NCBI GenBank assembly: GCA_030980935.1
Contig: GCA_030980935.1_3059.1
Reading direction: 5' to 3' (one strand)
Length of the DNA: 64,000 nucleotides
Source of the DNA: a phage
Below the pieces are notes generated by a model that made no database searches, had not been told where the DNA came from, and saw only the letters and a list, made by a program, of their open reading frames with translations. The first letter of the stretch is position 1. The number at the start of each line of letters is the position of its first letter. Of this stretch, positions 4,242 through 56,386 are shown one piece after another. The position numbers were made by a program, and so were the translations under genes.

Positions 4242-4567
4242 TTAAACCATCCTTTAATACGCTGCCACAAAGTTTTCTGTTGAGCTTTGTTAACACCAAT
4301 TGAGCGAATAACTGGTTGAGATTCCTGGAATTCTTTATAATCAGCAAGGTAAATTTCGTAAGCTGCATCCGTAAATGAACTTATCGCCGCCATAAAATTA
4401 TTGCGAATACCTGCTGGAGCATCTTTACTTTCACGAATAATCATGTATTTACCAGTCTTAATCTTTACGATAGTTCCAAGATAAGCTCCATGGTACCAGA
4501 TGTCCCACCCCTCTTGAGTGGGTTCTGCACAACGACGAAGTTCATTAACAATTTCTAACTTGTTCAT
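4238..4567 (-). CDS. Hypothetical protein (109 aa)
   Basis: Track ORF; 4-nt overlap with upstream gene. Confidence 0.55.
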
Positions 4568-5310: not shown

Positions 5311-5334
5311 AAAGGGAGAGCCGAGGCTCTCCCT
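5311..5334 (-). terminator. GC-rich hairpin between gene 52 and the motA promoter
   Basis: GGGAGAGC cgag GCTCTCCC, 8-bp stem. Confidence 0.5.
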
Positions 5335-6817: not shown

Positions 6818-6958
6818 TTACCATACTAGTGAATGTAGTGCCATAATAACATCAGAAATGAAAAGCACGACTTGAATTAATCCGAACATTACTCCATAAT
6901 ATAGTGCTACCAATAAAGTAGCAAGGGCTAGTGAATAGCCCAAGATTTTCTTAATCAT
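6818..6958 (-). CDS. Small hydrophobic peptide (46 aa), directly upstream of gene 52
   Basis: Hand-translated MIKKILGYSLALATLLVALYYGVMFGLIQVV...; single TM-like segment. Confidence 0.35.
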   Translation of the reverse strand: MIKKILGYSLALATLLVALYYGVMFGLIQVVLFISDVIMALHSLVW

Positions 6959-7109
6959 TAGTAGATAACAACACAAATGTTAAATATGCACACATACCCT
7001 GGGCTAAAGCTTGTGAAAACACACTGCTAGCATCGATACAGATAGTTAAAACACATGCTACTATCCAACAAATAAATGAAATAACTCCTAATAATTTTGC
7101 GATATTCAT
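6951..7109 (-). CDS. ac: Small membrane protein, likely ac (acriflavine sensitivity)
   Basis: 52 aa hydrophobic ORF between 52 and stp, where T4 ac lies; GAGGAAAA RBS. Confidence 0.55.
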   Translation of the reverse strand: MNIAKLLGVISFICWIVACVLTICIDASSVFSQALAQGMCAYLTFVLLSTND

Positions 7110-7116
7110 ATTTTCC

Positions 7117-7197
7117 TCACTGGCGTCCGAAGACGCCTTTAGTTTTAAGATTATTACGATAGAACTGCATCACGTGTTCGTTGTGGAAATTACTCAT
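7117..7197 (-). CDS. stp: Stp peptide (26 aa), activator of host PrrC anticodon nuclease
   Basis: Hand-translated [26 protein letters not shown], matching remembered T4 Stp; start overlaps ndd stop. Confidence 0.8.
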
Positions 7198-7655
7198 TAA
7201 TATGCCTGCAAAACGAATTTAAAGTTATCAGCCAACATACGGTTCATTTCTTCAAGTGTTTGATACTCAGAATGATGATTACGAGTAAACGCTAAAGCTA
7301 ACTGTCCTTTTCCAAATCCCGTCGTCAGAGGTTTCATCTTAGAAGCAGGCAGATAAAATACTGTGTATGGAACATTGTTATTTGCAATAGTACGTGCAAG
7401 CTGAGACCGACGTTGACGAATATGACTTAGAACTGCGCTGAATCCTTGCTTAGAACGCTGATTACCTACATAAAATCGTGCTGACACACATGGATTACTA
7501 AATGGACGACCATCTAATTTACTTACTAAAAAGTAAAATCCAGGTTTAGATAAAATATCTTTATGCGGAGTTCCCAAAAACCACTCACCACCCTTGATTG
7601 TACCAATAACAGTAGCGCCTGCGTTGTTCAGATCAGTAACAGTCATGTATTTCAT
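7197..7655 (-). CDS. ndd: Nucleoid disruption protein Ndd
   Basis: Track ORF 7197..7709 trimmed to the internal ATG with GAGGAAA RBS ([16 protein letters not shown]...), about 152 aa. Confidence 0.8.
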
Positions 7656-7713
7656 ATTAATTTCCTCTAAATTATTTTCTACTCCAAGGCCGCATGAATA
7701 CGCGGCCATTAAA

Positions 7714-26042: not shown

Positions 26043-26054
26043 TTAAATGAAAAA

Positions 26055-26074
26055 AGGACTCCCGAAGGAGTCCT
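26055..26074 (-). terminator. Hairpin terminator after soc
   Basis: AGGACTCC cgaa GGAGTCCT, 8-bp stem. Confidence 0.6.
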
Positions 26075-26079
26075 TGAAT

Positions 26080-30761: not shown

Positions 30762-31055
30762 TTATTCGCCTGTGATTTCGGTTACGATATTTTTGTTATT
30801 AAAGTTTTTATCGCAGTACAGAACATAATTATACTGCATTACACCACCAGACTTAAGTTGTTTTTGCACTTCAGCTTTCATTTCAGGACGATCGCGCTCA
30901 ACGATATTCATAATATCCGCTTCAATTTGAGTTTCAACTTCAGTCTGATCTGCAGTCATAGACCATTCACACAAATCTTTATCATATCCTGCCATAGCAG
31001 GCTGAGCAGCACAAGAAGCCAAAGTAAAAATTGTAGCAAAAATAAATTTTTTCAT
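30762..31055 (-). CDS. sp: Spackle periplasmic protein
   Basis: 97 aa with signal peptide MKKFIFATIFTLASCAAQPAMA; position between 61 and 41. Confidence 0.7.
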   Translation of the reverse strand: MKKFIFATIFTLASCAAQPAMAGYDKDLCEWSMTADQTEVETQIEADIMNIVERDRPEMKAEVQKQLKSGGVMQYNYVLYCDKNFNNKNIVTEITGE

Positions 31056-31115
31056 GATAATCTCCTCAGTAGTTTATGTTTATATAGTATCTCAATTTCC
31101 AACAAAAGTAAACAG

Positions 31116-31373
31116 CTATTTTAAAACTTCTGCGTAATCACATGTTACAAACTGTTTCTCTAGCTTAACGATTTTACGAAAATACCTTTTATACTGACGA
31201 ATCTGCCTCTTCGTAGGACGTACAGCAAACTTAATAAATTCCACTCGACCAAATGGAGGACTTTCTTCTGCTGGAATATCTAACACCAATTCCCACGTAT
31301 CTGCAATAAGTGCTTTGAATTGAGTATTTTTCCTGACGTTATACGGAGTAGGTTTAAATAAAACAATATGCAT
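31116..31373 (-). CDS. Hypothetical basic protein (61.4 position)
   Basis: Track ORF 31116..31427 trimmed to internal ATG (MHIVLFKPTPY...) to abut dmd. Confidence 0.4.
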   Translation of the reverse strand: MHIVLFKPTPYNVRKNTQFKALIADTWELVLDIPAEESPPFGRVEFIKFAVRPTKRQIRQYKRYFRKIVKLEKQFVTCDYAEVLK

Positions 31374-31374
31374 A

Positions 31375-31557
31375 TTATCCTCGGCAATCCACTTCGCACA
31401 CTTTCTTGTCATCAATGAAAGCTTCAACTAATGCTTTATTAACTTCAGCATATTGAGTAGTAGCCCATTGAACGTCATCTTTCATCATTGTGATTTCTTT
31501 AGTAAACATGCTTTCATTCTTAAACCACCCCATAAAAACTACCTTTACCAATTCCAT
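31375..31557 (-). CDS. dmd: Dmd antitoxin (inhibitor of RnlA/LsoA)
   Basis: 60 aa MELVKVVFMGWFKNESMF...; immediately downstream of gene 41. Confidence 0.7.
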   Translation of the reverse strand: MELVKVVFMGWFKNESMFTKEITMMKDDVQWATTQYAEVNKALVEAFIDDKKVCEVDCRG

Positions 31558-31584
31558 AACAATCTCCTCATTTAACCAACAAGA

Positions 31585-31620
31585 CTACTATACCATAGTC
31601 TTGTCAGCTTGTAAACTAAA
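31585..31620 (-). promoter_or_regulatory. T4 early promoter upstream of dmd
   Basis: GTTTAC (31611-31616) with TGGTATAG -10-like; overlaps gene 41 stop. Confidence 0.45.
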
Positions 31621-33043
31621 ATTTTAATTCATTTGCCAAAGCATCTAACTGTGCTCGAGTGGATTCATTTCTTTGATAGCGATTCTGTTCAGCCTGAATC
31701 TGTTGTGAACCTGCTACTTCACTCACTTCAGTTGGAGTAGAATCTTGTTCAATTTCTACCCATTTCTGATTTCCCTTTTGAACACCCATCAAAAACTTAT
31801 TCCACTTATTCTTATCGCCATATCGTGATTTGATTTGCTTAATGAGTTGTTGTTCAGCAGCTGCTAGCTCCTCGGTTTCAATGACCGCAAGCATAAAATC
31901 AGCTGTTGCTGGAAGACCAGCAGATTCTGCGATATCACTCATGTTAACATCGGAAGAGTCCCAAGCTTGTTTACCAACCTGTGCTGCAGTCCAAAGAACA
32001 GTTTCGGTTTCAACAGCAAGAGCACGCAATTCCTCTGCAATAGCTTTAACAGTTGTGTAACTATTTTCTGAGTAAACTCTGATGCGGCAAGATTTACAAA
32101 TACCTAGATAGTCGACAATAATGATTGTTGGAACAAAATTCTTTTTGAGCTTCAATTCATTCAAGAGAGACCTGAATGTGTTAGCATCTGCCCCACCAGT
32201 AGGGTACTGTTTAACAATTAAACGACCGAGAGTAGATTTCTCACGCCATTTTTCCATTTTTCCTTTATACTCAGCGTAAGAAATATGCCCATCATCAATG
32301 TCATCAAGAGAAACATCGAGCATATTAGCGTCAATACGTTTAGCACAGACTTCTTCTGCCATTTCCATGGAGATATAAAGAACGTTATGTCCAAGCTGTA
32401 AATAATCTGCTGCTAATGAACACAATCCTAATGATTTACCAACGTTAACGCCAGCCATTAAAACGTTCAGTGTTCCAGTTTCAGCTCCGCCTTTAGTAAT
32501 TTTGTTTAGAATTCTGAGTTTAAATGGAACCTTACGAGCTTTATTCATATAAGATAGCCAACGTGCTTCGTAGTCATCCATCCAATCATGACCAACGTAA
32601 CTATCAAATGAAATTGATAATGCTTGGCGCATGATGTCAGGAATAGCACCAACATCCGGCATTTTCTTATTTCGTTTTTCCGGAGGAAGCTCAGCATTAG
32701 TTTGAATTTCGATTATTTTAGACGTAGCATTAAACATCGCCCTTTGCTGAACATATTTTTCTGTTTCTTTTATTAACCAACTGTGGTCTTCCGGAGAATC
32801 AGCTAGTTTTGAAATAAGTGTTTTTACACCAGAATATTCTGTTTCCGTAAATGAACTATTTTCTAATGCAACATTTAACGCATTAATAGATGGAACGCTA
32901 TGATACTCATTGACATGAGATTTAATTAATTTGAATGTATTTTTAGCTGGACCACTTTCAAAATATTCTGAATCCATATATGGCCAAACTTTTGAAAAAT
33001 AAGCTTGATCAAATATGAGATGAGAAAGAATAATTTCTACCAC
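31616..33043 (-). CDS. 41: Replicative DNA helicase gp41 (DnaB-like)
   Basis: 475 aa; Walker A GVNVGKS and RecA-like core. Confidence 0.9.
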   Translation of the reverse strand: MVEIILSHLIFDQAYFSKVWPYMDSEYFESGPAKNTFKLIKSHVNEYHSVPSINALNVALENSSFTETEYSGVKTLISKLADSPEDHSWLIKETEKYVQQRAMFNATSKIIEIQTNAELPPEKRNKKMPDVGAIPDIMRQALSISFDSYVGHDWMDDYEARWLSYMNKARKVPFKLRILNKITKGGAETGTLNVLMAGVNVGKSLGLCSLAADYLQLGHNVLYISMEMAEEVCAKRIDANMLDVSLDDIDDGHISYAEYKGKMEKWREKSTLGRLIVKQYPTGGADANTFRSLLNELKLKKNFVPTIIIVDYLGICKSCRIRVYSENSYTTVKAIAEELRALAVETETVLWTAAQVGKQAWDSSDVNMSDIAESAGLPATADFMLAVIETEELAAAEQQLIKQIKSRYGDKNKWNKFLMGVQKGNQKWVEIEQDSTPTEVSEVAGSQQIQAEQNRYQRNESTRAQLDALANELKF

Positions 33044-33052
33044 ACTTACTCC

Positions 33053-33415
33053 TTAAAAGAATTTAAACTTTTTCTTTGACCTTTTATTAAATGCATCTTG
33101 TAGTTGCATTGTAATACATTTTTCTACATGAGGAGCTAACTCAGCTTTTCTTTCTTGGTCAAGAACAGCAAAGTCCATTACGACTTTTCCATTAACCCAA
33201 TCTAATTTTGTCACATACACAATGTGTGTAGAACCATCTTCTAGTTTAATGACAATCTCCTGGATAACATTTTCCATGGCAGATTTAATTATCTTAAGAG
33301 ACTCATTAAAAAGACGTTCTTTTCTTTCTTCTTCCCCCTCCGAAGAGGGGGATTCATCGATAATTTCTAGATCTAAATCTAAATCATCTTTATTCATTAA
33401 ATTCTTCCATATCAC
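33053..33415 (-). CDS. 40: gp40-like protein (120 aa)
   Basis: Position between 41 and uvsX; acidic N-terminus; synteny-based. Confidence 0.5.
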   Translation of the reverse strand: MIWKNLMNKDDLDLDLEIIDESPSSEGEEERKERLFNESLKIIKSAMENVIQEIVIKLEDGSTHIVYVTKLDWVNGKVVMDFAVLDQERKAELAPHVEKCITMQLQDAFNKRSKKKFKFF

Positions 33416-34571
33416 TTAACTGCTCGAGGTCAGTTTCTAAATCAGCAGCTGATTTACTTTTACTTTCTGGAGATTTAAATTTTTCAACCTTTGAGTTAAT
33501 CAATTCATCAACTTCAGCTTCAACAATTTCATTACTATCAATAGCACCTAACTGATAAGCACGTTTAATAGCATCTCGGAATGGTTGATGCTTAAATAAA
33601 GGACCCCAGAATGTAGTGCAGTTGGTATCTTTTGCACGCCAAGATTTTTCTTCGCGAATCATCTCGCCGGTTTCTTCATCAAGAAATTCACGAGCATACC
33701 AACCATTTTTAGGTTTTACCACGAATCCTAATTCTAGAGCCATATCTAACAATCCAGAATAAGGATCGATACCGCCGTCAAATTTAACATCAATAAAGAA
33801 TTTACTTTTTTCTTTAACGGTACGAGATTTTTCTACATTTAGAACAAATTGATACCCTTGAAGATCAGAACCATCTTTAATTTGACGTTTACCGATAATG
33901 AATACAGTATCAGCCGAATACATTACGCCTGTACCACCTGTCATCACGGTTTTACTAAACATTTCAATTGTTTCAATTGTATGGTTAACCGCAACACATG
34001 GAATATTTTTAATGCTAAAATAAGGAGTAACAATACGGAATAATGACTTCAGTGATTTAGCACGAGTCATATCTGCCACAGATTTTTCATTCAAGGCGTC
34101 TTCCGTTTCTTTCTTAGAAGCCATATTACCGATTGAGTCGATGAATACAATAACTTTTTCACCGCGCTCAATAGCTTCAAGCTGATTCACCATATCAATT
34201 TTCAGCTGTTCAACTGACTGGATTGGCGTATGAATTACTCGTTCCGGGTCAACTCCCATGGATCGCAAATAAGCTGGAGTAATACCAAATTCGCTATCAT
34301 AGAATAGACAAACCGCGTCAGGATATTTGTTCAAATATGCCGCAACCATAGTCAAAGACATATTTGATTTAAAGTGTTTAGAAGGCCCTGCGAAAATAGT
34401 TAAACCAGACTGCATGCCGCCATCAATCGCACCAGAAATAGCAATATTAAGCATTGGGATTTTTGTACGGATTACATCCTTTTCATTAAAGAATTTAGAT
34501 GTAGTCAGTTCAGCAGTCATTTTAGAAGTGGAAGCTTTAATCAAACGGGATTTTAAATCTGCAATAGACAT
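33390..34571 (-). CDS. uvsX: UvsX recombinase (RecA/Rad51 family)
   Basis: 393 aa; RecA-fold Walker A (GPSKHFKS). Confidence 0.9.
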   Translation of the reverse strand: MSIADLKSRLIKASTSKMTAELTTSKFFNEKDVIRTKIPMLNIAISGAIDGGMQSGLTIFAGPSKHFKSNMSLTMVAAYLNKYPDAVCLFYDSEFGITPAYLRSMGVDPERVIHTPIQSVEQLKIDMVNQLEAIERGEKVIVFIDSIGNMASKKETEDALNEKSVADMTRAKSLKSLFRIVTPYFSIKNIPCVAVNHTIETIEMFSKTVMTGGTGVMYSADTVFIIGKRQIKDGSDLQGYQFVLNVEKSRTVKEKSKFFIDVKFDGGIDPYSGLLDMALELGFVVKPKNGWYAREFLDEETGEMIREEKSWRAKDTNCTTFWGPLFKHQPFRDAIKRAYQLGAIDSNEIVEAEVDELINSKVEKFKSPESKSKSAADLETDLEQLSDMEEFNE

Positions 34572-34648
34572 TCATTTTTTCCATAGGCATCATTATATTT
34601 TCCTCACTGGTTAAAGATAGAGTAATTATAACACAATAAATTTAGGCA

Positions 34649-35497
34649 TTAATCAACTGCTATTGGATGAATAGCATTAAACTTATGAAATGCTTCTGAT
34701 TTTTCTTTACGCGAAACACACATGCGAAGAACCTTTAATGGCTCGTCTTCTTCACCCAACGATTTTCGTTTTTCAATATTCGATGTTTTCCAACGAGCTT
34801 GCTCTGGAAACTCTCTATTGATCTGCTCAAGCGCTCTATTATGTTTAGAATTACTACGAATTGAACTGCACCCGCCAGGAGCTTGTGCTTTTCCAGATAC
34901 AACCAGATATTTGAACAAGGCCAAATGCGGATAACCTTGATTAATTAAATTGAGAAATGCATACATATCTTCGCACAAATCAATTTTTCCATACCCAATT
35001 TGTTCTGTCGTAAGTTTTCCAAGGTCATACCATGTATTCGTGAATCCATATGAATTTTCACGATAATTACCCCAAGATGAAGTAATTTTAAAAATTGGTA
35101 GGCGAGCATGACCATGATAATACCCGCAATCCATGGCATCTTCGACGTATTGAATCAATTCATAGAACTGTTCATGAGTCAATTGATTGACTTTATCTAC
35201 ACATCGGCGATCATCTCTTTTTCGCATTGAACTCATACGAATAGTAGTATCATCGTCAATCATCCAGATTCGTTGACCTGCATACATATCAGTAATTGCT
35301 TTACGAGTACCGGCAATTCCGTTTACATCATCAGGAATAGTTATAATTTTAGCTCTAGACCCATAAGCATCATAATAAGCTTTTTCTTCGTGTTCACGCA
35401 CTACAATATGGGGTTCATAATCAGTCGGAAACATATCAAGGGCAGAAACTGCCCCAACACGCTGATAGCTTGGAATTACGAATTGAATCATTTCCAC
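34649..35497 (-). CDS. DxD-type glycosyltransferase at the locus where T4 carries beta-gt (282 aa)
   Basis: GT-A-like features: N-terminal IPSYQR, DxD (IWMIDDDTT); does not resemble remembered T4 beta-gt. Confidence 0.55.
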   Translation of the reverse strand: MEMIQFVIPSYQRVGAVSALDMFPTDYEPHIVVREHEEKAYYDAYGSRAKIITIPDDVNGIAGTRKAITDMYAGQRIWMIDDDTTIRMSSMRKRDDRRCVDKVNQLTHEQFYELIQYVEDAMDCGYYHGHARLPIFKITSSWGNYRENSYGFTNTWYDLGKLTTEQIGYGKIDLCEDMYAFLNLINQGYPHLALFKYLVVSGKAQAPGGCSSIRSNSKHNRALEQINREFPEQARWKTSNIEKRKSLGEEDEPLKVLRMCVSRKEKSEAFHKFNAIHPIAVD

Positions 35498-36228
35498 TCA
35501 CCGTTATAGTCTTTTTTCACAATATGAGTTTCGCCAGTATTCCACCAATGATCAACCAAGTAAAAATGACGAGAATATACATGAAGACTTCCAACATTCC
35601 ATATAATAGAACCTGCTTTATACTGACGAGTTGAATCGCCTGCATTCAAATCAGATACTAATTTATCTAGTACGTATTTTTGCCATGCGTAATCATTACG
35701 GAATCCGAAGACCACGTCATTTGAGCGCATGCTTACTACTGCATTGACTTTCTTATCACGAATCAGGTACTGTACTGTATTAGTACACATGAAATCTGAC
35801 ATACCGTCTTTATTGTAATCAAATTGCATGGATGGACGAGTATAAATCATGATACCACGTCGAGAATCAGGATTTTGACCAAGTTCAGCTAAACACATAT
35901 CATACTGGGCATAGTTATCTTCTGACCAAATAGCCCAACCATAATTCGAGTTAATTTCGCCTTTAGAAGATGCTACCTGCTGCCAAATCTTTGGTGTTTC
36001 ACCTGGAATATCTTTAACAAACAGACTTTGAGACTTGTACCATTCAAGTTCACGCTGAATGTATTCATCATTAAGAGCACCAAAAATAAAAGGTTCATCT
36101 GCTACAAATGATGCGCCAATAATTTCAATAGTTTTAACACCGGTTTTATCAACTACGAAATCTTTTTCTTTTAATGCAAGCCCCAAATGAAGACGGATTT
36201 CTTCAACTGTCATAGAGTCACTAATCAT
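35488..36228 (-). CDS. 42: dCMP hydroxymethylase gp42
   Basis: 246 aa; thymidylate-synthase-like fold. Confidence 0.9.
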   Translation of the reverse strand: MISDSMTVEEIRLHLGLALKEKDFVVDKTGVKTIEIIGASFVADEPFIFGALNDEYIQRELEWYKSQSLFVKDIPGETPKIWQQVASSKGEINSNYGWAIWSEDNYAQYDMCLAELGQNPDSRRGIMIYTRPSMQFDYNKDGMSDFMCTNTVQYLIRDKKVNAVVSMRSNDVVFGFRNDYAWQKYVLDKLVSDLNAGDSTRQYKAGSIIWNVGSLHVYSRHFYLVDHWWNTGETHIVKKDYNGEWK

Positions 36229-37420: not shown

Positions 37421-37440
37421 AAGGGACCCGGAGGTCCCTA
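37421..37440 (-). terminator. Hairpin after gene 43
   Basis: GGGACC cgga GGTCCC. Confidence 0.55.
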
Positions 37441-40596: not shown

Positions 40597-41160
40597 TTAC
40601 CATTCCAATGCTAGTTTTTTGAGTTGTTTCTGTTCTTTTACGTTCTTAGTCACTTCTTTCAAAAAATCATCCGTGACTAATCCTTTAAGTTCTTTTAATA
40701 CTAAAGGCAGTTTTCCATTTTTAGTAAGAATTGATTTATAGTTAATTGCATCATTTGTATTAACTTGATACCGCTTAGCAAGTAACTTAATAATCAATAC
40801 TTCGGTGGAATCTTCAACTAGTTTTGCCCATTTACCATATCTTTTACCACGAGGAACTGCAGCCATTAGATAATTAAAATGAGCTTCATCGCTTAAACCT
40901 GATCCAATTAAATTCATAGCATATACAGCTGGCATGCACTCCGGAAATTGTGATAATGCATTTTCAACCATGAATTTTGAATAATCTTTTTGAGCAATAG
41001 AGCATTTAGTTTTATTATTAATAGCTCCAATTATTTCAAAAAACTCATTTTCAGCTTTTTCTTTAAAAGAATCAGCAGCAGATTGGACAGCTGTCCAATC
41101 TTTTGAATACCAAGCAACTTGATGCTCGTTTAATTGAATATCATCTTCAAATAAGCTCAT
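40597..41160 (-). CDS. 62: Clamp loader small subunit gp62
   Basis: Track ORF 40597..41181 trimmed to MSLFEDDIQ... start (187 aa). Confidence 0.8.
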
Positions 41161-52123: not shown

Positions 52124-52594
52124 TTAATCATGTGTCCACACCCCATCGGTATTTGACCAAAGTCGCTGATTATCTGATCCTCGCCACAGCTTTTTGGTCG
52201 GAAGATTTTTCTCATACTTCCCATCAATAATAACATCAACATATTTAAGCATTTCTAGTTGTTTAATATCTTCAAACTTATATCCTGTCCACAACCAAAT
52301 GCTTTTACTGGGATAAAGATTTTTTACTGTTTGAACGATGCAATGAATAACATCTCGGTTATCAGGATAGAGAGGGTCTCCTCCAGTTATAGTTAATCCT
52401 TCTATATAATCATTATTCAAACATTCAATTAATTGTTCTAGTGTTTCACCAGTGAATGGAATACCATTTCTAGCATTCCATGTTGATTTATTATAACACC
52501 CTTCACATTTATGCAAACAACCTGTAACGAAAAGAACGACCCTGCAACCAGGGCCATTCACAAAATCGCAAGGATAAAATCTATCATAATTCAT
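52124..52594 (-). CDS. nrdG: Anaerobic ribonucleotide reductase activase NrdG (radical SAM)
   Basis: 156 aa; CxxxCxxC cluster motif (CLHKCEGC). Confidence 0.9.
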   Translation of the reverse strand: MNYDRFYPCDFVNGPGCRVVLFVTGCLHKCEGCYNKSTWNARNGIPFTGETLEQLIECLNNDYIEGLTITGGDPLYPDNRDVIHCIVQTVKNLYPSKSIWLWTGYKFEDIKQLEMLKYVDVIIDGKYEKNLPTKKLWRGSDNQRLWSNTDGVWTHD

Positions 52595-56207: not shown

Positions 56208-56386
56208 TTAGAAATAGACTTTTCACCGTTAGAATAATAAACTTCGAGTTTAGCACGATTATTTTTAATTTGAATAACCTTTGCTGTCATCAAAGTTCCA
56301 TACCCGTAATAAACTGTAACCTCATCACCTACATATACCGCGCTTCCGCGGTAGTCATGGATATAATCAGTTCCTTCGAGCATCAT
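56171..56386 (-). CDS. Hypothetical protein (71 aa)
   Basis: Track ORF. Confidence 0.45.
   Translation of the reverse strand: MMLEGTDYIHDYRGSAVYVGDEVTVYYGYGTLMTAKVIQIKNNRAKLEVYYSNGEKSISKWKYGDCMVKLG

Follow-up and report, generated by a model that had tools for sequence, protein, structure and literature searches.

Why does a strong hairpin lie inside a translated reading frame, and what does it do there? The question arises from a stretch of 64,000 nucleotides of phage DNA (contig GCA_030980935.1_3059.1, hereafter the window), for which a preliminary description had stated that stable hairpins mostly follow stop codons. This is the case: 20 of the 27 strong sense-strand hairpins start ≤60 nt past a stop codon, where ~10% would be expected. 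The same description placed one perfect UUCG-capped hairpin within the open reading frame at 33053..33415 and another within stp. It suggested an internal terminator or attenuator, a processing site, a translational pause or a mis-called start.

The hairpin in gene 40

The window is from a mosaic T-even phage (Tequatrovirus), an assignment based on the whole set of identity figures. The region of the hairpin is 99.6% identical to Shigella phage A2, about 99.4% to wV7 and 99.3% to RB51, the UvsX protein matches its counterpart in a phage T2 record at 100% identity, and the nearest genomes over 24 kb have about 97% identity. The late genes 37, 38 and t come first, on the plus strand, followed by the early genes on the minus strand. 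Early and middle genes occupy the minus strand; hence the plus-strand loop CGAA is UUCG in the mRNA. In the temporal classes of T4 omics supplements, uvsX and gene 40 RNA are early and gene 41 RNA is middle.

Table 1 Features of the window, and hairpin types found at related loci (RNA sequences, 5' to 3')
Feature	Position in window	Strand	Sequence or remark
uvsX (RecA-like recombinase)	33390..34571	-	Stop codon 33390-33392, 37 nt upstream of hairpin
Gene 40 (head vertex assembly chaperone, 114 aa)	33053..33397	-	ATG overlaps uvsX stop
Gene 41 (replicative helicase)	31616..33043	-	Distal gene
Gene 40 (post-uvsX) hairpin	33333..33352	-	UCCCCCUC-UUCG-GAGGGGGA; 8 bp, C(UUCG)G tetraloop
Purine-rich tail directly 3' of the stem	33315..33332	-	AGAAGAAAGAAAAGAACG; without U-run
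Six displaced hairpins	56336-56353, 52534-52559, 41080-41101, 35439-35455, 33333-33352, 4504-4522	-	
stp hairpin	7122..7137	-	GGCGUC-UUCG-GACGCC; -10.0 kcal/mol
stp ORF	7117..7197	-	26 codons + stop; ATG overlaps ndd stop
Shine-Dalgarno-like GAGGA and ac ATG	7107..7118	-	Directly past stp hairpin
Hairpin, T4 type			UCCCCCUC-UUCG-GAGGGGGA
Hairpin, F2 and Mosigvirus			UCCCCUUC-UU(C/U)G-GAAGGGGA
Hairpin, Karamvirus and Gelderlandvirus			CCCCCUC-UCAG-GAGGGGG
Hairpins, Klebsiella phages			UCUCCCUC-GGAA-GAGGGAGA; AAGCUCCCCUU-GAAG-AAGGGGAGUUU
Hairpin, Gaprivervirus			UGCGGAGGGAGC-UAAG-GCUCCUUCUGUA
Hairpin, Kanagawavirus and Dhakavirus			GAGGGY-CCUAGUG-RCCCUC
Hairpins, two IMG/VR types			GGAAUCCUC-UGAU-GAGGAUUCC; GGAGUCCUC-AAAC-GAGGACUCU

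The hairpin is present where it had been placed, at 33334-33351. The plus strand reads CCCCCTCCGAAGAGGGGG and the mRNA CCCCCUC-UUCG-GAGGGGG, and a flanking U-A pair lengthens the stem to 8 bp (33333-33352); 6 of the 7-8 bp are G-C. It begins 37 nt past the uvsX stop codon and 45 nt past the gene 40 ATG, and it occupies codons 16-22 (SPSSEGE). The folding calculation that had been proposed as a check bears it out: the 18-mer folds at -14.0 kcal/mol with 95% of the ensemble, the 20-mer at -15.9 kcal/mol, and the hairpin is kept in MFE and centroid folds with 101 nt and 358 nt of context. No other hairpin in the 358 nt upstream of gene 41 reaches -10 kcal/mol. Gene 40 of T4 has the same 20-nt hairpin, identical in sequence and in the same codons. 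The 8 nt that follow the stem contain 0 T, and a consensus terminator scan did not call the hairpin terminator-like.

Extra-stable C(UUCG)G tetraloop hairpins were reportedly described in T4 mRNAs by Tuerk and colleagues in 1988. The T4 hairpins of this kind, summarised in PMC4371310, share with the one in gene 40 the UUCG loop, the C-G closing pair and the sense strand. Both the gene 40 and the stp hairpins have this loop and closing pair on the transcribed strand, as is typical of the class. Most of the other C(UUCG)G hairpins of the window are intergenic or straddle a stop codon and are followed by 3-6 T within 8 nt, whereas the gene 40 hairpin is 45 nt inside its ORF and has 0 T.

The preliminary description was correct in placing the hairpin within a reading frame, which is gene 40, but not in the extent of that frame, which starts at the annotated ATG at 33397 and not at the GTG at 33415. 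In T4, gene 40 starts with an ATG that overlaps the uvsX stop codon (AAUGAAUAA), and 33397 is the equivalent position here. The idea of a mis-called start fails: across the Tevenvirinae the frame upstream of the hairpin is open and its indels come in multiples of three, and there is no in-frame start codon between the hairpin and the conserved gp40 core. Programmed frameshifting was rejected, as the first 30 codons hold no slippery X_XXY_YYZ heptamer and stop codons close both alternative frames. A RegB site was rejected as well; GGAG is present but buried in the 3' arm of the stem, and secondary structure protects against RegB (PMC3014915). An Rfam scan of 31000-36000 (E ≤ 1) gave no match, and a consensus scan found no minus-strand promoter-like site near 33250-33330. 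In a single-sequence structure model of gp40, residues 1-21 are low-confidence coil and a helix begins at residue 22. The model is weakly consistent with an N-terminal tail that tolerates whatever the stem encodes.

Selection on the RNA structure

The gene 40 hairpin is real and is under selection as an RNA structure. Codons 14-26 of gene 40 were recoded synonymously, weighted by local codon usage (n = 20000). The recodings have a mean of -6.8 kcal/mol (sd 2.7) compared with -16.7 kcal/mol for the observed sequence, and 2 out of 20000 are equally stable. The stem employs the rare codons CCC and GGG.

The comparison drew on the gp40 loci of 16 diverse Straboviridae and of 31 IMG/VR contigs, the latter retrieved by a related-locus search with an 8-sequence alignment. 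A hairpin of -10.5 to -19.4 kcal/mol lies ~32-61 nt past the uvsX stop codon in most of the Tevenvirinae gp40 loci (L002-L009, L016, L017 and 30 of the 31 IMG/VR loci). Every Tevenvirinae lineage with gene 40 directly after uvsX has such a hairpin, and it is inside gene 40. At least eight different types of stem and loop occur across the Tevenvirinae loci (Table 1), and the encoded peptides vary with the stems, even to a reversal of their order (SPSSEGE, APSQEGE, SPSEEGD, EGPSDPR, AEGAKAPS).

Compensatory synonymous changes are found in homologous codons: Pro CCC>CCU is accompanied by Glu GAG>GAA in F2 and HX01, and Ser UCC>UCU by Gly GGG>GGA in Roth20. A formal pair count was made on a gapless subset of 7 sequences, because MAFFT left gaps when aligning all hairpin types. 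In this subset 98% of cells are paired, both sides have changed in 5 of 8 pairs, and 0 of 500 shuffles are as good, but these pairing statistics are inflated, since for each locus the best hairpin was taken into the comparison. When IMG/VR was scanned with degenerate codons for natural synonymous variants, 9 loci were retrieved, comprising two variants, both fully paired, and unrelated copies of the hairpin. The G-U pairs present in VR20 and L034 correspond to A-C mismatches on the opposite strand and are valid only in mRNA. Therefore, the structure is selected in the mRNA sense.

Two unrelated IMG/VR contigs contain an identical 20-nt hairpin, UCCCCCUCUUCGGAGGGGGA (L055 2515-2537, L056 1132-1154). 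One of the contigs bearing it is a 244-kb phage in which a U-run follows the hairpin, in the manner of a terminator. This stem appears to have originated or spread on independent occasions.

Association with uvsX and a proposed role for the hairpin

The sequence comparisons tie the hairpin to uvsX, at its 3' end, and not to gene 40, across several phage families. In phages without an overlap between uvsX and gene 40, the hairpin is intergenic (MP1, Margaery, phiEap-3 and Asswx_1); that of phiEap-3 is GGGGC-UUCG-GCCCC and that of Margaery is annotated as a terminator. In L040 and Vibrio K571, intergenic canonical terminators with U-runs lie 2 nt past the uvsX stop codon. The hairpin of Sinorhizobium phiN3 is inside gene 41, 22 nt past the uvsX stop, and is the sole strong one in 2.2 kb, that of Salmonella phage Maynard (Ackermannviridae) is inside an unrelated overlapping ORF, 7 nt past the stop, and that of a Campylobacter phage straddles the stop, upstream of a homing endonuclease gene. 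Such a hairpin is absent from gene 40 in Acinetobacter phage AM101 and a Tegunavirus record, in both of which gene 40 follows another gene and not uvsX. Synechococcus S-CRM01 is the only sampled uvsX lineage without a post-uvsX hairpin.

Two of these loci have further features. In L040 a promoter-like stretch containing TATAAT (845-895) lies between the uvsX terminator and gene 40, and genes 40 and 41 may have a promoter of their own there, unlike in T4-type genomes. In MP1 (L011), the N-terminal tail of gene 40 (653-991) includes DETPAKEN, which resembles the hairpin-coded ETPSQEGE of Karamvirus; this stretch has no hairpin, and the hairpin of MP1 is intergenic. Evolution could have gone either way, with the stem absorbed into the ORF or built within it.

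A stem-loop upstream of gene 41, inside gene 40, is documented in T4 (Hinton 1989, J Biol Chem 264:14432, 14440, as restated in PMC12152347), in the same gene order uvsX-40-41 and with no material difference from the arrangement here. In a study by Hinton's laboratory, Kim et al. (2025) took the 358 nt that precede gene 41 in T4 as the leader of a reporter (PMC12152347); the legend to Fig. 5 gives the in vivo RNA 3' end and indicates where gene 40 starts and where uvsX stops. That paper cites Hinton (1989) for an in vivo RNA 3' end immediately past a stem-loop in the 358-nt region, and for a larger amount of RNA ending at this site and a deficiency of gene 41 mRNA in rho mutant infections; it also states that GoF(D25Y) restores gene 41 mRNA. 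The level of gene 41 mRNA is there reported to depend on transcripts passing the hairpin. GoF(D25Y) acts post-transcriptionally and lengthens RNA half-life, most strongly with the full 358-nt leader (PMC12152347). Growth on the rho alleles is rescued by Rop too, and Rop is not an antiterminator; the mutant Rho proteins, for their part, do not simply cause more termination (PMC12152347; PMC2988021). These Rop and Rho results led to a nuclease-protection model (Hinton 2010 review, PMC2988021).

Because the gene 40 hairpin is the only one of ≤ -10 kcal/mol in the 358 nt, we infer that it is the published T4 stem-loop, which PMC12152347 shows in a figure. On this identification the hairpin is already known, as a documented stem-loop and a known kind of message-boundary signal. 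A literature search for T4 3'-end-mapping data found none.

We propose, with a probability of about 0.65, that the gene 40 hairpin is a 3' boundary or stability element of the uvsX message that lowers the expression of genes 40 and 41. Transcripts would run from uvsX through gene 40 into gene 41, and the C(UUCG)G-capped stem would form out of reach of ribosomes terminating at uvsX and just beyond the gene 40 initiation region. Exonucleases degrading the distal transcript in the 3'-to-5' direction would stall at the stem and are the most likely source of the 3' ends, to which inefficient termination or pausing possibly contributes. The outcome would be a stable uvsX message and fewer full-length transcripts into genes 40 and 41, with read-through supplying both genes. 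Recombinase and helicase levels would thereby be set separately, in a dosage of much recombinase and little helicase. The element would be inside gene 40 because the overlap with uvsX leaves no intergenic space, and the SPSSEGE peptide would be largely dictated by the stem. As expected of a 3' stabiliser, a stable stem is found shortly downstream of the uvsX stop codon, in the same relation across lineages. Ribosomes translating gene 40 have to melt the stem, and any barrier on translated RNA would be weakened as a result.

Intercistronic hairpins that stabilise 3' ends, such as REP in malEFG and the hairpins of the puf operon, bring about differential expression within operons. The logic proposed here would be analogous, with a stem that blocks 3' exonucleases and a proximal message that outlasts the distal one. 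The REP and puf elements are in intergenic spacers, whereas the gene 40 stem doubles as translated sequence of the following gene.

The hairpin could instead be a weak terminator or pause site, leaky intrinsic or dependent on Rho, NusA or NusG, at which RNA polymerase would release some of the transcripts past the stem and so attenuate genes 40 and 41, a reading that we consider possible but doubtful. Like a canonical intrinsic terminator it has a GC-rich stem (≥5 bp, short loop) past a stop codon, and the 3' end immediately past the stem and the larger amount of RNA ending there in rho mutant hosts (PMC12152347) would also fit. So would the canonical U-run terminators at the homologous positions of L040 and Vibrio K571 and the marking of the Margaery and G50 equivalents as terminators by annotators. 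However, the gene 40 hairpin is without a U-tract (0 T in 8 nt), a conserved U-run is found in no Tevenvirinae lineage, and the uvsX promoters need read-through at this site to transcribe genes 40 and 41. The action of GoF(D25Y) through RNA half-life (PMC12152347), the rescue by Rop and the behaviour of the mutant Rho proteins (PMC12152347, PMC2988021) also argue against termination. Thus, the earlier suggestion of an internal terminator, attenuator or processing site pointed in the right direction, as judged from the published T4 3' end and the link to uvsX, but the element is not a canonical terminator. Both an exonuclease barrier and weak or factor-dependent termination are compatible with the sequence data here. 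A function in gene 40 itself is unlikely, be it a translational pause or throttle ~15 codons into the gene or an aid to reinitiation at the overlapping AUG. The position of the hairpin 45 nt past the AUG is just outside the initiation footprint, and the window has five more strong hairpins that lie 33-59 nt inside an ORF, both of which favour this explanation. A pause is nevertheless disfavoured as the primary role because elsewhere the hairpin is intergenic or in unrelated genes: it precedes gene 40 in the intergenic gap in several genera, it lies in non-homologous downstream genes in phiN3 and Maynard, and it is missing from the gene 40 of AM101 and of the Tegunavirus record, which does not follow uvsX.

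Least probable of all, and very improbable in our estimate, is that the peptide gives rise to the hairpin through its complementary codons (Pro CCN, Gly GGN, Glu GAG), that the hairpin is due to chance, or that it is a palindrome acting at the DNA level, for example as a recombination or cassette boundary. The peptide is indeed prone to palindromes, as ~8% of the usage-weighted synonymous encodings of SPSSEGE still yield a stem of ≥7 bp when G-U pairs are counted, and the related peptide DETPAKEN exists in MP1 without a hairpin. Yet the codons actually used rank in the top 1 in 10000 by stability, pairing is kept where the peptides differ or even reverse (EGPSDP, AEGAKAPS), the compensatory changes are synonymous, and it is the sense strand alone that has the G-U pairs and the UUCG loops. 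The comparison, the recoding, the compensatory changes and the pair count largely refute a protein by-product or chance, and the peptide is best read as shaped by the stem. A DNA-level cassette would require a promoter after the stem, and none is present. Arbiol, Comeau and Krisch reportedly described promoter-early stem-loop cassettes of T4-type phages in 2010. The window resembles these in having a stem-loop at a gene boundary of a T4-type genome, and in L040 a stem-loop is followed by a TATAAT-like element before gene 40, as in the cassettes. The stem of the window, in contrast, has no following promoter, and its locus is in the conserved replication and recombination core and not in a hyperplastic region.

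The message-boundary reading can be tentatively extended. The post-uvsX hairpin, which occurs in Straboviridae, an Ackermannviridae phage, a Campylobacter phage and a rhizobiophage, may be an ancient dosage device, conserved widely, that separates the abundant recombinase from the replicative-helicase module downstream. In the Tevenvirinae it would be dual-coding: the stem would determine some of the residues in the disordered tail at the N-terminus of gp40, and its formation would be gated by gene 40 translation, coupling 3'-end formation and gene 41 expression to ribosome traffic. If this is true, ribosome-coupled 3'-end formation could explain the long-puzzling rho(nusD)/goF phenotype.

Other translated hairpins and significance

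The second hairpin described within a coding region is likewise at the position claimed for it, 7122-7137, where it encodes GVFGRQ, the last six of the 26 residues of Stp. It lies 59 nt past the ndd stop codon, and its end precedes the stp stop by 2 nt and the ac start codon by 12 nt. No U-run follows the stem, and 1 of the next 8 nt is T. Conservation of the hairpin extends to four genera, Tequatrovirus, Mosigvirus, Dhakavirus (with one G-U pair and an Stp one residue shorter) and Gaprivervirus (in which a synonymous change makes the loop UUUG), and one record annotates it as a putative terminator. It is absent from phage F1, the Stp of which has a different C-terminus. The activity of Stp resides in the conserved 18 N-terminal residues (Uzan and Miller 2010, PMC3014915), loss of the 8 C-terminal codons decreases it only moderately, and the C-terminus is polymorphic (PMC3014915). 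Because the C-terminus is largely dispensable, the hairpin-coded residues matter little for the protein. We conclude that the stp hairpin is an ordinary sense-strand gene-end hairpin overlapped by a very small ORF.

A further conserved hairpin, GGGCUACUCGGUAGCCC and its variants (L049 510-526, about 6925-6945 in the window), is ~17 nt into a small membrane-like ORF after ac (MIKKILGY...), and is thus a third hairpin translated in a small ORF. In phage G50 a hairpin of the GGGCUACUCGGUAGCCC type is annotated as a putative terminator. At the start of ndd (7197-7709, 170 aa), the minus strand has GGCCGCG-UAUUCA-UGCGGCC (7688-7707, -13.3 kcal/mol), 2 nt past the first base of the ATG. This 5' hairpin could sequester the initiation region.

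The window has 12 strong C(UUCG)G hairpins, and each is in the sense orientation of its local genes; a single copy, between genes 37 and 38, is on the plus strand. Four CUUCGG hairpins besides that of stp straddle a gene end. The nine intergenic CUUCGG hairpins (9784-50519) are A-rich on the 5' flank, and 3-6 of the 8 nt past the stem are T, compared with 0-1 for the two within ORFs. A full UUUU tail is restricted to a few hairpins (26054-26075, and those with CUCCGG or CCUCGG loops at 37422-37439 and 5313-5334).

Among the 12 strong hairpins (≤ -10 kcal/mol) inside minus-strand ORFs, 6 are 29-60 nt past an upstream stop codon (binomial p ~3e-5), which places them 33-59 nt into the next ORF (Table 1). 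The counts point to a shift of gene-end hairpins into the following ORF where genes abut. One of the six, at 35439-35455, is GGGGCAG-UUU-CUGCCCU with a U-rich tail, 32 nt past the gene 42 stop and inside the beta-alpha-glucosyltransferase gene. The junction of gene 42 and beta-gt in T4 (L001 5330-5560), where beta-gt replaces beta-alpha-gt, has no hairpin. The pattern of displaced post-stop hairpins is statistical and not universal.

Hairpins with CUUCGG have been known since 1988. A 3' end past the stem-loop of this region has been reported since 1989 (Hinton 1989, as cited in PMC12152347). The present analysis adds that the element tracks the 3' end of uvsX across several phage families, that it is kept up by compensatory changes while being translated, and that it has no terminator tail. 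It is a clear natural case of a coding stretch determined by RNA structure and not by the protein, in which pairing outlasts synonymous compensatory changes and completely different peptides, across genera. Annotators of tightly packed phage genomes should note that a strong hairpin lying 30-60 nt inside an ORF can belong to the preceding gene, as its displaced 3' signal. For the biology of T4-like phages, the link to uvsX gives a testable handle on the failure of gene 41 mRNA in rho(nusD) hosts and on its rescue by GoF(D25Y).
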